Origin: Escherichia coli
GTDB taxonomy: Bacteria > Pseudomonadota > Gammaproteobacteria > Enterobacterales > Enterobacteriaceae
Direction: 5' to 3' (one strand)
Length of the DNA: 64,000 nt
Assembly (NCBI RefSeq): GCF_013122565.1
Contig: NZ_CP053258.1
The position numbers and the translations under genes are program-made. The notes under the pieces are model-generated. The model was given only the letters and a program-made list of their open reading frames with translations, made no database searches and was not told the origin of the DNA. Every line of letters starts with the position of its first letter. Positions within the stretch are counted from its first letter, which is position 1. Shown piece by piece: positions 3,896-57,268 of the stretch.

Positions 3896-4243
<348 letters not shown>

Positions 4244-33959: not shown

Positions 33960-34100
33960 CACAGGGCTGTAACGGTAAAGCCCTCACCGAAGCGAGGGCT
34001 TGAAGGAGAAGGGTTATGATGCGACTTGTCATCATACTGATTGTACTGTTACTGATAAGTTTCGGAGCTTATTAACAGTCAGTCTCAGGGGAGGAGTCAT
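33960..34100 (-). ncRNA. sibC: Sib-family antisense sRNA (approximate boundaries)
   Basis: inferred from Ibs ORF position and family architecture; ends not mapped. Confidence 0.35.
34016..34075 (+). CDS. ibsC: Ibs-family type I toxin (19 aa, MMRLVIILIVLLLISFGAY)
   Basis: below ORF-track size cutoff; near-identical to recalled IbsC. Confidence 0.8.
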   Translation: MMRLVIILIVLLLISFGAY

Positions 34101-34352
34101 CCTCCCTTACCCTTACTCACTAAATTAGGTCAAAGAATCAACGATGTCAATCAGGGCGATGCGGGGTGCATCGCCCTGAACCGATCTTTTTGATAGCCAC
34201 ATCATCGCCCGCGTTTACTGCTGCAATAAATCCCTTTTCCCTGCAATGTATGTCTGCCTTACATGACGTTTTACGAGTGCACTCGAAGAAAAGATTTAAA
34301 GGCAGATCAATGCGTTGTGTTTATTTAATGGGGATTTACGATGGCAGGGCAG

Positions 34353-34493
34353 CATGGGGCTGTAACGGTAAAGCCCTCACCGAAGCGAGTGCTTGAAGGA
34401 GAAGGGTTATGATGCGACTTGCCATCATACTGATTGTACTGTTACTCATAAGTTTCCCAGCTTATTAACAGTCAGTCTCAGGGGCGGAGTCAT
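34353..34493 (-). ncRNA. Sib-family antisense sRNA, second copy (approximate)
   Basis: by analogy with copy 1. Confidence 0.3.
34409..34468 (+). CDS. Ibs-family type I toxin (19 aa, MMRLAIILIVLLLISFPAY)
   Basis: small ORF in second repeat copy; three residues differ from copy 1. Confidence 0.75.
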   Translation: MMRLAIILIVLLLISFPAY

Positions 34494-34568
34494 CCTCCCT
34501 TACCCTTACTCACTAAATTAGGTCAAAGAATCAACGATGTCAATCAGGGCGATGCAGGTGTGTCGCCC

Positions 34569-35190: not shown

Positions 35191-35374
35191 GGGAATCTCC
35201 GAGATGCCGCCGCAGGCTGTAACCCTTGAACCCTTGGTTCAAGGTGAATGTGTCGTCGCAGTTTTAAGGCTTCTCGGACGGACCGAGCATGCTCACCAAC
35301 CGCGGAGCGCCACATTCTTGTGGTATGAAATATCGGCTCAGGGGACTGGCCCGCTTGCGAACATCTCAGAGAAA
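35191..35374 (-). ncRNA. ssrS: 6S RNA
   Basis: reverse complement reads ATTTCTCTGAGATGTTCGCAAGCGGGCCAGTCCCCTGAGCC...CGGAGATTCCCT, matching 6S RNA as recalled. Confidence 0.9.
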
Positions 35375-35416
35375 TTTTGTCTTCACGGTTACTCTACCAC
35401 AGTAAACCGAAAAGTG

Positions 35417-52227: not shown

Positions 52228-53961
52228 GTGAAACAACAGATACAACTTCGTCGCCGTGAAGTCGATGAAACGGCAGACTTGCCCGCTGAATTGCCTCCCT
52301 TGCTGCGCCGTTTATACGCCAGCCGAGGAGTACGCAGTGCGCAAGAACTGGAACGCAGTGTTAAAGGTATGTTGCCCTGGCAGCAACTGAGCGGCGTCGA
52401 AAAGGCCGTTGAGATCCTTTACAACGCTTTTCGCGAAGGAACGCGGATTATTGTGGTCGGTGATTTCGACGCCGACGGTGCCACCAGCACGGCTCTAAGC
52501 GTGCTGGCGATGCGCTCGCTTGGTTGCAGCAATATCGACTACCTGGTTCCAAACCGTTTCGAAGACGGTTACGGCTTAAGCCCGGAAGTGGTCGATCAGG
52601 CCCATGCCCGTGGCGCGCAGTTAATTGTCACGGTGGATAACGGTATTTCCTCCCATGCAGGGGTTGAACACGCTCGTTCGTTGGGCATTCCGGTTATTGT
52701 TACCGATCACCATTTGCCGGGCGACACATTACCCGCGGCGGAAGCGATCATTAACCCTAACTTGCGCGACTGCAATTTCCCGTCGAAATCACTGGCAGGC
52801 GTGGGGGTGGCGTTTTATCTGATGCTGGCGCTGCGCACCTTTTTGCGCGATCAGGGCTGGTTTGATGAGCGCGGCATCGCAATTCCTAATCTGGCAGAAC
52901 TGCTGGATCTGGTCGCGCTGGGGACAGTGGCGGACGTCGTGCCGCTGGACGCTAATAATCGCATTCTGACCTGGCAGGGGATGAGTCGCATCCGTGCCGG
53001 AAAGTGCCGTCCGGGAATCAAAGCGCTGCTGGAAGTGGCGAACCGCGATGCGCAAAAACTCGCCGCCAGCGATTTAGGTTTTGCGCTGGGGCCACGTCTC
53101 AATGCTGCCGGGAGACTGGACGATATGTCCGTCGGTGTGGCGCTGTTGCTGTGCGACAACATCGGCGAAGCGCGCGTGCTGGCAAATGAACTCGATGCCC
53201 TAAACCAGACGCGAAAAGAGATCGAACAAGGAATGCAGGTTGAAGCCCTGACCCTGTGCGAGAAACTGGAGCGCAGCCGTGACACGCTACCCGGCGGGCT
53301 GGCAATGTATCACCCCGAATGGCATCAGGGCGTTGTCGGTATTCTGGCTTCGCGCATCAAAGAGCGTTTTCACCGTCCGGTTATCGCGTTTGCGCCAGCA
53401 GGTGACGGTACGCTGAAAGGTTCCGGTCGCTCCATTCAGGGGCTACATATGCGTGATGCGCTGGAGCGATTAGACACACTCTACCCCGGCATGATGCTCA
53501 AGTTTGGCGGTCATGCGATGGCGGCGGGTTTGTCGCTGGAAGAGGATAAATTCGAACTCTTTCAACAACGGTTTGGCGAGCTGGTTACTGAGTGGCTGGA
53601 CCCTTCGCTATTGCAAGGCGAAGTGGTGTCAGACGGTCCGTTAAGCCCGGCCGAAATGACCATGGAAGTGGCGCAGCTGCTGCGCGATGCTGGCCCGTGG
53701 GGGCAGATGTTCCCGGAGCCGCTGTTTGACGGTCATTTCCGTCTGCTGCAACAGCGGCTGGTGGGCGAACGTCATTTGAAAGTCATGGTCGAACCGGTCG
53801 GCGGCGGTCCGCTGCTGGATGGTATTGCTTTTAATGTCGATACCGCCCTCTGGCCGGATAACGGCGTGCGCGAAGTGCAACTGGCTTACAAGCTCGATAT
53901 CAACGAGTTTCGCGGCAACCGCAGCCTGCAAATTATCATCGACAATATCTGGCCAATTTAG
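52228..53961 (+). CDS. recJ: ssDNA-specific exonuclease RecJ
   Basis: 577 aa; GTG start. Confidence 0.95.
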   Translation: MKQQIQLRRREVDETADLPAELPPLLRRLYASRGVRSAQELERSVKGMLPWQQLSGVEKAVEILYNAFREGTRIIVVGDFDADGATSTALSVLAMRSLGCSNIDYLVPNRFEDGYGLSPEVVDQAHARGAQLIVTVDNGISSHAGVEHARSLGIPVIVTDHHLPGDTLPAAEAIINPNLRDCNFPSKSLAGVGVAFYLMLALRTFLRDQGWFDERGIAIPNLAELLDLVALGTVADVVPLDANNRILTWQGMSRIRAGKCRPGIKALLEVANRDAQKLAASDLGFALGPRLNAAGRLDDMSVGVALLLCDNIGEARVLANELDALNQTRKEIEQGMQVEALTLCEKLERSRDTLPGGLAMYHPEWHQGVVGILASRIKERFHRPVIAFAPAGDGTLKGSGRSIQGLHMRDALERLDTLYPGMMLKFGGHAMAAGLSLEEDKFELFQQRFGELVTEWLDPSLLQGEVVSDGPLSPAEMTMEVAQLLRDAGPWGQMFPEPLFDGHFRLLQQRLVGERHLKVMVEPVGGGPLLDGIAFNVDTALWPDNGVREVQLAYKLDINEFRGNRSLQIIIDNIWPI

Positions 53962-54051
53962 CGTCATCTTCTCTATAAAAAAGAGCGTGGATTGGGTACA
54001 ATCCCGCTCTTATCACCGCATTTTGACTAGCTCAATAAAAGAAATCAGACC

Positions 54052-55150
54052 ATGTTTGAAATTAATCCGGTAAATAATCGCATTCAGGACCTCACGGAAC
54101 GCTCCGACGTTCTTAGGGGGTATCTTTGACTACGACGCCAAGAAAGAGCGTCTGGAAGAAGTAAACGCCGAGCTGGAACAGCCGGATGTCTGGAACGAAC
54201 CCGAACGCGCACAGGCGCTGGGTAAAGAGCGTTCCTCCCTCGAAGCCGTTGTCGACACCCTCGACCAAATGAAGCAGGGGCTGGAAGATGTTTCTGGTCT
54301 GCTGGAACTGGCTGTAGAAGCTGACGACGAAGAAACCTTTAACGAAGCCGTTGCTGAACTCGACGCCCTGGAAGAAAAACTGGCGCAGCTTGAGTTCCGC
54401 CGTATGTTCTCTGGCGAATATGACAGCGCCGACTGCTACCTCGATATTCAGGCGGGGTCTGGCGGTACGGAAGCACAGGACTGGGCGAGCATGCTTGAGC
54501 GTATGTATCTGCGCTGGGCAGAATCGCGTGGTTTCAAAACTGAAATCATCGAAGAGTCGGAAGGTGAAGTGGCGGGTATTAAATCCGTGACGATCAAAAT
54601 CTCCGGCGATTACGCTTACGGCTGGCTGCGTACAGAAACTGGCGTTCACCGCCTGGTGCGTAAGAGCCCGTTTGACTCCGGCGGTCGTCGCCATACGTCG
54701 TTCAGCTCCGCGTTTGTTTACCCGGAAGTCGATGACGATATCGATATCGAAATCAACCCGGCGGATCTGCGCATTGACGTTTATCGCGCGTCCGGCGCGG
54801 GCGGTCAGCACGTTAACCGTACCGAATCTGCGGTGCGTATTACCCACATCCCGACCGGGATCGTGACCCAGTGCCAGAACGACCGTTCCCAGCACAAGAA
54901 CAAAGACCAGGCCATGAAGCAGATGAAAGCGAAGCTTTATGAACTGGAGATGCAGAAGAAAAATGCCGAGAAACAGGCGATGGAAGATAACAAATCCGAC
55001 ATCGGCTGGGGCAGCCAGATTCGTTCTTATGTCCTTGATGACTCCCGCATTAAAGATCTGCGCACCGGGGTAGAAACCCGCAACACGCAGGCCGTGCTGG
55101 ACGGCAGCCTGGATCAATTTATCGAAGCAAGTTTGAAAGCAGGGTTATGA
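54052..55150 (+). CDS. prfB: peptide chain release factor 2, with programmed +1 frameshift
   Basis: frame 0 ATG at 54052 runs 25 codons to CTT TGA (54124-54129) preceded by SD-like AGGGGG; +1 frame continues from 54128 to 55150; combined 365 aa. Confidence 0.9.
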
Positions 55151-55159
55151 GGAACCAAC

Positions 55160-56677
55160 ATGTCTGAACAACACGCACAGGGCGCTGACGCGGTAGTCGA
55201 TCTTAACAATGAACTGAAAACGCGTCGTGAGAAGCTGGCGAACCTGCGCGAGCAGGGGATTGCCTTCCCGAACGATTTCCGTCGCGATCATACCTCTGAC
55301 CAATTGCACGCAGAATTCGACGGTAAAGAGAACGAAGAACTGGAAGCGTTGAACATCGAAGTCGCCGTTGCTGGCCGCATGATGACCCGCCGTATTATGG
55401 GTAAAGCGTCTTTCGTTACCCTGCAGGATGTGGGTGGCCGCATTCAGCTGTACGTTGCCCGTGACGATCTGCCGGAAGGCGTTTACAACGAGCAGTTCAA
55501 AAAATGGGACCTCGGCGACATCCTCGGCGCGAAAGGTAAACTGTTCAAAACCAAAACCGGCGAACTGTCTATCCACTGTACCGAGCTGCGTCTACTGACC
55601 AAAGCACTGCGTCCGCTGCCGGATAAATTCCACGGCTTGCAGGATCAGGAAGCGCGCTATCGTCAGCGTTATCTGGATCTCATCTCTAACGATGAATCCC
55701 GTAACACCTTTAAAGTGCGCTCGCAGATCCTCTCTGGTATTCGCCAGTTCATGGTGAACCGCGGCTTTATGGAAGTTGAAACGCCGATGATGCAGGTGAT
55801 CCCTGGCGGTGCCGCTGCGCGTCCGTTTATCACCCACCATAACGCGCTGGATCTCGACATGTACCTGCGTATCGCGCCGGAACTGTACCTCAAGCGTCTG
55901 GTGGTCGGTGGCTTCGAGCGTGTATTCGAAATCAACCGTAACTTCCGTAACGAAGGTATCTCCGTACGTCATAACCCAGAGTTCACCATGATGGAACTCT
56001 ATATGGCTTACGCAGATTACAAAGATCTGATTGAGCTGACCGAATCGCTGTTCCGTACTCTGGCACAGGATATTCTCGGTAAGACGGAAGTGACCTACGG
56101 CGACGTGACGCTGGACTTCGGTAAACCGTTCGAAAAACTAACCATGCGTGAAGCGATCAAGAAATATCGCCCGGAAACCGACATGGCGGATCTGGACAAC
56201 TTCGACTCTGCGAAAGCGATTGCTGAATCTATCGGTATCCACGTTGAGAAGAGCTGGGGTCTGGGCCGTATCGTTACCGAGATCTTCGAAGAAGTGGCAG
56301 AAGCACATCTGATTCAGCCGACCTTCATTACTGAATATCCGGCAGAAGTTTCTCCGTTGGCGCGTCGTAACGACGTTAACCCGGAAATCACAGACCGCTT
56401 TGAGTTCTTCATTGGTGGTCGTGAAATCGGTAACGGCTTTAGCGAGCTGAATGACGCGGAAGATCAGGCGCAGCGCTTCCTGGATCAGGTTGCCGCGAAA
56501 GATGCAGGTGACGACGAAGCGATGTTCTACGATGAAGATTACGTCACCGCACTGGAACATGGCTTACCGCCGACAGCAGGTCTGGGGATTGGCATCGACC
56601 GTATGGTAATGCTGTTCACCAACAGCCATACCATCCGCGACGTTATTCTGTTCCCGGCGATGCGTCCGGTGAAATAA
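55160..56677 (+). CDS. lysS: lysyl-tRNA synthetase (constitutive)
   Basis: 505 aa. Confidence 0.95.
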
Positions 56678-56695
56678 GCATTACGTTATGCTCAC

Positions 56696-56721
56696 AACCC
56701 CGGCAAATGTCGGGGTTTTTT
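56696..56721 (+). terminator. lysS intrinsic terminator
   Basis: aaccccggcaaatgtcgggg followed by ttttttatt. Confidence 0.75.
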
Positions 56722-57268
56722 ATTTAAGCTGGGTAAATGCAGATAATCGTATTCTGGCTTCGCGATTTGTCGCCTGCATCACCATCCACGGACTGAACGC
56801 CCACGGCGTGGCATCAATACCGCGTAATACATCAGCTAAATCACACCATTGATAATCCATCACTTCATCATCGTTGATCTGTAACGCACTGGTGGTGCGT
56901 GCGGCAAATACCGGACACACTTCATTTTCCACAATGCCATTCGGATCGGTGGCGCGATAGCGAAAGTCAGGATAGATAGATTCAGGAGGCGTAATTTCCA
57001 CGCCAAGCTCATAACGGCAACGGCGGATCACCGCGTCTTCGTTGCTTTCTCCCAGTTGTGGGTGCCCACAAACCGAGTTAGTCCACACGCCAGGCCATGC
57101 TTTTTTGCTCAGTGCGCGGCGGGTAACTAATAATTGTCCTTTGGCATTAAACAGCCAACTGGAGAACGCGAGATGTAAGCGGGTGTCTGCCGTGTGTGCG
57201 GCATACTTTTCCAGCGTACCCGTGGGAACTCCCTGTGCATTCAATAAAATGACGTGTTCCGTTTGCAT
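56720..57268 (-). CDS. idi: isopentenyl-diphosphate delta-isomerase
   Basis: 182 aa. Confidence 0.9.

Follow-up and report, generated by a model that had tools for sequence, protein, structure and literature searches.

The +1 frameshift site of prfB in a 64-kb segment of an Escherichia coli genome

The stretch of Escherichia coli DNA analysed here (64,000 nucleotides, referred to as the window) carries prfB, the gene of release factor 2 (RF2), in a form that an open reading frame (ORF) finder does not recognize as one gene. At this place the ORF list contains a 25-aa ORF (54052..54129) and a 293-aa ORF (54269..55150), and an ORF for the whole gene is absent. The locus raises the question of how RF2 is encoded: by two frames joined in translation through a +1 ribosomal frameshift, by a shorter factor with a start codon of its own, or by a gene whose frame has been broken by mutation or error. 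We examined the reading frames and signals of the site, the joined product, its counterparts in other species, and the same locus in other E. coli genomes.

Reading frames and signals at the prfB site

In the translation of the window, the zero frame opens on the plus strand with ATG at 54052-54054 and comprises 25 codons before an in-frame TGA at 54127-54129 (codon 26); termination there yields a peptide of 25 aa. The last sense codon of this frame is CTT (54124-54126), and the base that follows the TGA is C (54130). A Shine-Dalgarno (SD)-like hexamer, AGGGGG, is located at 54115-54120, 3 nt 5' of the shift codon and 6 nt 5' of the TGA, and is separated from the CTT by the codon TAT (54121-54123). 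The hexamer is complementary to the E. coli anti-SD sequence CCUCC; an Rfam scan of the window detected no rRNA genes.

The +1 frame runs uninterrupted from 54074, directly after a TAA at 54071, to TGA 55148-55150. Its earliest ATG, GTG or TTG is the ATG at 54269, and for this reason the ORF list reports only 54269..55150 for the long frame and no single ORF spans prfB. These readings agree in full with the preliminary description, which had the zero frame run for 25 codons from ATG 54052 to CTT TGA C, with AGGGGG 3 nt before the CTT, the long RF2 frame accessible by a +1 shift, and the gene not covered by any one ORF. Every coordinate was recovered by re-reading and translation, the +1 frame is without a start before 54269, and the in-frame TGA leaves no continuous ORF.

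The motif AGGGGGNNNCTTTGAC, searched on both strands with up to one mismatch allowed, has one match in the 64-kb window. The match is exact and is located at the prfB site, and the mean number of matches in dinucleotide-preserving shuffles was 0.06. Similarly, the 16-mer AGGGGGTATCTTTGAC has a single occurrence in the window. The heptamer CTTTGAC alone occurs 15 times and is uninformative by itself; the informative part is therefore the combination of the elements and their position in the gene.

A +1 programmed ribosomal frameshift in prfB of E. coli K-12 was reportedly described by Craigen and Caskey in 1986, and reporter work of the 1980s and 1990s is said to have shown that a short cassette, corresponding to about 54112-54131 of the window, shifts as efficiently as the full context. 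More recently, a premature stop in prfB was found in 64% of 12,753 genomes (PMC12421855). The consensus derived from that survey consists of AGGGGG, a 3-nt spacer, CTTT, the stop, and a highly conserved C; the AGGGGG was drawn from 8,164 frameshift-containing prfB genes, and the internal stop is nearly always TGA and never TAG (PMC12421855). The window agrees with this bacterial motif at every consensus element and shows no differences from it. By the published account, CTT T (54124..54127) is the slippery sequence on which tRNA-Leu in the P site exchanges its pairing with CUU for one with UUU, and TGA together with the C (54127..54130) corresponds to UGAC, an RF2-specific stop in a weak termination context (PMC12421855). 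The spacer codon TAT lies in the E site of the ribosome while CUU occupies the P site, a role described in the same source (PMC12421855).

From these elements, the following course of translation is proposed. Ribosomes would start at ATG 54052 and read 25 codons, which would bring CUU into the P site and the UGA stop into the A site. With C as its next base, this UGA would be a poor termination signal: with abundant RF2 the UGA would be read and the 25-aa peptide released, whereas with scarce RF2 the ribosome would wait at the UGA. Pairing of the AGGGGG with the 16S rRNA anti-SD tail would take place at an unusually short spacing of 3 nt, and the duplex would displace the E-site tRNA and destabilise the pairing in the E and P sites. 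The peptidyl-tRNA-Leu would slip from CUU to UUU (54125-54127), GAC (54128-54130) would enter the A site, and the +1 frame would then be read to TGA 55148-55150 to give the full-length RF2 of 365 aa. RF2 would thereby repress its own synthesis. The steps of weak termination at UGAC, waiting, displacement of the E-site tRNA, and slippage of tRNA-Leu follow PMC12421855. Ribosome profiling at the endogenous E. coli locus gave approximately 28% frameshifting in K-12, and approximately 47% in the K-12 RF2 background without RF3 (PMC5373646).

With a probability of about 0.98, we consider this the canonical +1 programmed ribosomal frameshift by which prfB of E. coli regulates its own expression; for actual, RF2-dependent shifting we rely on published studies of this identical sequence. 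The prfB frameshift seen here is already known, and the site is the type example for the bacterial consensus. Antizyme, yeast Ty1/Ty3 and E. coli pheL also shift by +1 when a hungry or stop codon occupies the A site and the tRNA in the P site can re-pair or tolerate slippage. Unlike prfB, these systems are without an internal SD stimulator and without feedback by a product that reads the stop, and they are non-homologous to prfB. The pheL event is mentioned in the ribosome profiling study (PMC5373646).

It is highly improbable that the shift, while real, is driven mainly by downstream mRNA structure, of the kind known from many -1 frameshift sites, or by transcriptional slippage rather than by the SD-like element and the stop. 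The 100 nt 3' of the site do fold somewhat better than shuffles (z = -1.77), but 11 of the 200 shuffles fold equally well or better, and the fold is thus not significant. As for slippage, the sequence offers RNA polymerase no long homopolymer run, the only run being TTT. Published mutagenesis (PMC12421855) instead credits the SD-like sequence, CUUU, UGA and the C behind it, and these are exactly the conserved bases. A scan of 53500-55500 with Rfam at E values up to 10 showed no RNA family over the prfB site; a model is not expected there because the signal is short and linear. The sole match in this interval was Erse, with 9.9 bits against a gathering score of 138, and is attributed to chance.

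The joined product and its counterparts in other species

Joining 54052-54126 to 54128-55147 gives a protein of 365 aa, which was compared with solved structures and family models. The alignments with the RF2 structures PDB 1gqe and 1ml5 extend from 1-365 on 1-365 with 364/365 identity (approximately 801 bits, E ~1e-240), and the sole mismatch is at residue 298 with 1gqe and at residue 246 with 1ml5. The junction, between ...LRGYL and DYDAKK..., is aligned to PDB RF2 without gap or mismatch. The protein scored 525.9 bits with TIGR00020 (NCBIfam prfB; cutoff, 370); its scores with the RF1 and RF-H models fell short of their cutoffs. The +1 frame (54128..55150) encodes residues 26-365, including the RF2 hallmarks, the SPF tripeptide at 205-207 and the GGQ motif at 250-252, as well as Ala246. 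In addition, the joined protein is exactly WP_001701073.1, the RefSeq RF2 of E. coli that strain 730V1 encodes. The neighbouring ORFs were identified as DsbC, RecJ and LysS, and the gene order dsbC-recJ-prfB-lysS is that of E. coli. The join at 54126/54128 that the preliminary description had put forward is upheld by the 365-aa match to PDB RF2, TIGR00020 and WP_001701073.1.

To obtain a cross-species set, contigs representing one genome per species were scanned for exact copies of AGGGGGTATCTTTGAC, which gave at least 120 matching contigs. Under uniform base composition, the 16-mer would be expected by chance on the order of 100 times in the 298-Gb collection, and each match therefore needed checking. 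For this, the zero frame was extended upstream and the +1 frame downstream of each match, and the joined product was compared with the RF2 of the window. Because the set was chosen by exact match, conservation of the 16-mer within it is circular and was not used as evidence; the independent evidence consists of the location in the gene and the periodicity of the flanking sequence.

Among the matches listed, 117 of 120 contigs have the 16-mer at approximately codon 25 of a gene for an RF2 homologue, with protein identities to the window RF2 of 42-99.7%. The hosts among the matches listed include Gamma- and Betaproteobacteria, Bacteroidota and Nitrospirae. An RF2 match was absent in the other three of the 120 listed contigs (L043, L064 and L101). 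Around the 16-mer in L043 and L064, stop codons close the reading frame on either side after a short distance, and L101 ends 8 codons past the site and is uninformative.

The periodicity was determined for 114 listed loci as the mean majority-base fraction at each codon position, counted in the zero frame. Upstream of the site, position 3 is the least conserved (0.39), and the values of positions 1 and 2 are 0.64 and 0.71. Downstream of the site, position 1 is the least conserved (0.50), and those of the other positions are 0.77 and 0.81. The wobble minimum moves from phase 3 to phase 1, and the protein-level constraint therefore shifts its phase by +1 exactly at the site. The change of phase independently indicates that the two pieces are translated into a single protein.

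The same data bear on the idea that RF2 is produced without a frameshift, from an independent start at ATG 54269, as an N-truncated factor of 293 aa, with 54052-54129 forming a separate small ORF. The ATG is indeed the earliest start codon in the long frame, as the ORF finder reports. However, residues 1-72 of the solved RF2 structures are encoded, exactly and across the junction, by 54052-54126 plus 54128-54268; the start-less segment 54128-54268 is under coding conservation in the +1 frame in the 114 listed species; and the alignment to the RF2 family profile begins as early as residue 12. We regard the chance of such an internal start as close to nil.

Comparison with other E. coli genomes

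The 1.4-kb region around the site (53900-55300) was present at an identity of at least 95% in 5,425 of 5,426 complete E. coli genomes. The best match had 99.7% identity, and none of the 5,426 genomes was fully identical. The four differences from the best match, a single one in recJ plus three in prfB that affect third codon positions, are ordinary strain-level diversity over 1.4 kb. Within prfB, all substitutions relative to strain 730V1 are synonymous and at the third position. The 40 nt immediately around the site (54100-54139) were found with 100% identity in 4,411 E. coli genomes and with 1-2 differences in about 1,008. In three sampled variants of the latter group, the changes are only downstream of TGAC; they replace TAC by TAT, a silent change in the +1 frame, or GCC by ACC. 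In other E. coli, RefSeq gives prfB at this locus as a CDS in two pieces, annotated "programmed frameshift", and prfB of MG1655 (b2891) is likewise a two-piece CDS.

Compared with prfB of K-12 MG1655, the window shows no difference at positions 54052-54273, which include AGGGGG TAT CTT TGA C, or in the 91 nt of spacer upstream of the gene. The order recJ-prfB-lysS and the product length of 365 aa are also shared. There are 10 nucleotide differences in 1,099, all located beyond 54273, and one of them is non-synonymous. The single amino acid difference between the two RF2 proteins is Ala246 in the window (GCG, 54787-54789) as opposed to the K-12-specific Thr246. The RF2 product, the K-12-identical site, and the two-piece CDS in RefSeq together bear out the earlier identification of the locus as the classic prfB frameshift site.

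A pseudogene, or an extra T introduced by sequencing or assembly error so that the two frames are accidental, would be suggested by a single-base frame break, which resembles an indel error or an inactivating mutation, but the probability of this explanation is negligible: essentially every complete E. coli genome carries the identical break with its flanking signals, as do the RF2 genes of the 117 contigs of other species among the matches listed, coding periodicity is found in both frames with the +1 phase change at the site, the differences from 730V1 are only synonymous and just one of the ten from K-12 alters an amino acid, and RF2 is essential in E. coli. The correct annotation is accordingly join(54052..54126, 54128..55150) on the plus strand, rather than a 293-aa ORF or a pseudogene. 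The intact frameshift site confirms that the essential gene prfB is intact. As a textbook case of a +1 programmed frameshift, described in 1986 and surveyed in more than 12,000 genomes in 2025, the site in this E. coli segment adds nothing new.

E. coli B and other lineages carry the Ala246 allele, which is the normal state outside K-12 and terminates better (PMC5373646). The presence of Ala246 in place of Thr246 thus assigns the window to an E. coli lineage other than K-12, one that has the more active allele of RF2. Frameshifting with the B-type (Ala246) RF2 was 21%, which is slightly lower than the K-12 value (PMC5373646). It is conceivable, though quite unlikely, that the combination of Ala246 RF2 with a cassette identical to that of K-12 would give an autoregulatory set-point (frameshift efficiency and RF2 level) measurably different from the usual K-12 values, or that the 25-aa termination product would have a function of its own. 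Nothing unusual in the sequence points to either.

Neighbourhood of prfB and other elements of the window

Downstream of prfB on the plus strand is lysS (55160..56677), which encodes lysine-tRNA ligase (NF009101, 1110 bits). Its ATG at 55160 follows the prfB stop after a gap of 9 nt, and its SD sequence GAGGA overlaps the stop. The prfB stop is itself a TGA, which is readable by RF2, and is embedded in TGAGGA, the lysS Shine-Dalgarno sequence (55148-55162). The overlap of stop and SD and the 9-nt gap suggest a tightly coupled prfB-lysS operon. A terminator-like hairpin is located 3' of lysS, at 56696-56717.

At the threshold used, a consensus promoter scan of 53700-56900 detected no sigma-70-like site in the spacer between recJ and prfB. 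The sole promoter match in the scanned interval lies inside prfB, and this count is below the number expected from shuffles. The spacer contains an imperfect hairpin, AAGAGCG-T-GGATTG-GGTA-CAATCC-CGCTCTT, at 53981-54011, 20 nt past the recJ stop. The T-run that an intrinsic terminator should have is on the side of the minus strand (the complement of an A-run at 53977-53982) and not on the plus strand. This hairpin may act as a weak terminator for recJ, stabilise RNA, or terminate antisense transcription.

An antisense ORF of 334 aa with a TTG start extends across nearly all of prfB (54113-55117, minus strand). Most probably it is the shadow ORF of a gene with strong codon bias; RefSeq E. coli shows no annotated feature at its position.

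Elsewhere in the window, two tandem copies of the SIB antitoxin RNA were found on the minus strand at 34000-34150 (133.8 bits) and 34393-34543 (132.8 bits), with 146 of 151 positions identical. Opposite each copy, on the plus strand, is a 19-aa hydrophobic Ibs-like ORF, at 34016-34075 and 34409-34468, with the sequences MMRLVIILIVLLLISFGAY and MMRLAIILIVLLLISFPAY, respectively. The SIB copies adjoin 6S RNA (35192-35375, minus strand). K-12 presumably has a single copy (sibC/ibsC) at this locus, and the two copies here may represent a difference in copy number from K-12.

Finally, two matches to the Rfam family ES036 (CssrF), an sRNA, were found on the plus strand at 3983-4025 and 4157-4199, with 47-50 bits against a gathering score of 37.6. 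Both are within a direct repeat with a unit of approximately 175 nt (3950-4230), which also contains the REP-like palindromes GCCTGATAAGCGTAGCGCATCAGGC and TCGGATGCGGCGTGAACGCCTTATCCGA. The pair is more suggestive of repetitive extragenic DNA than of two dedicated sRNA genes.
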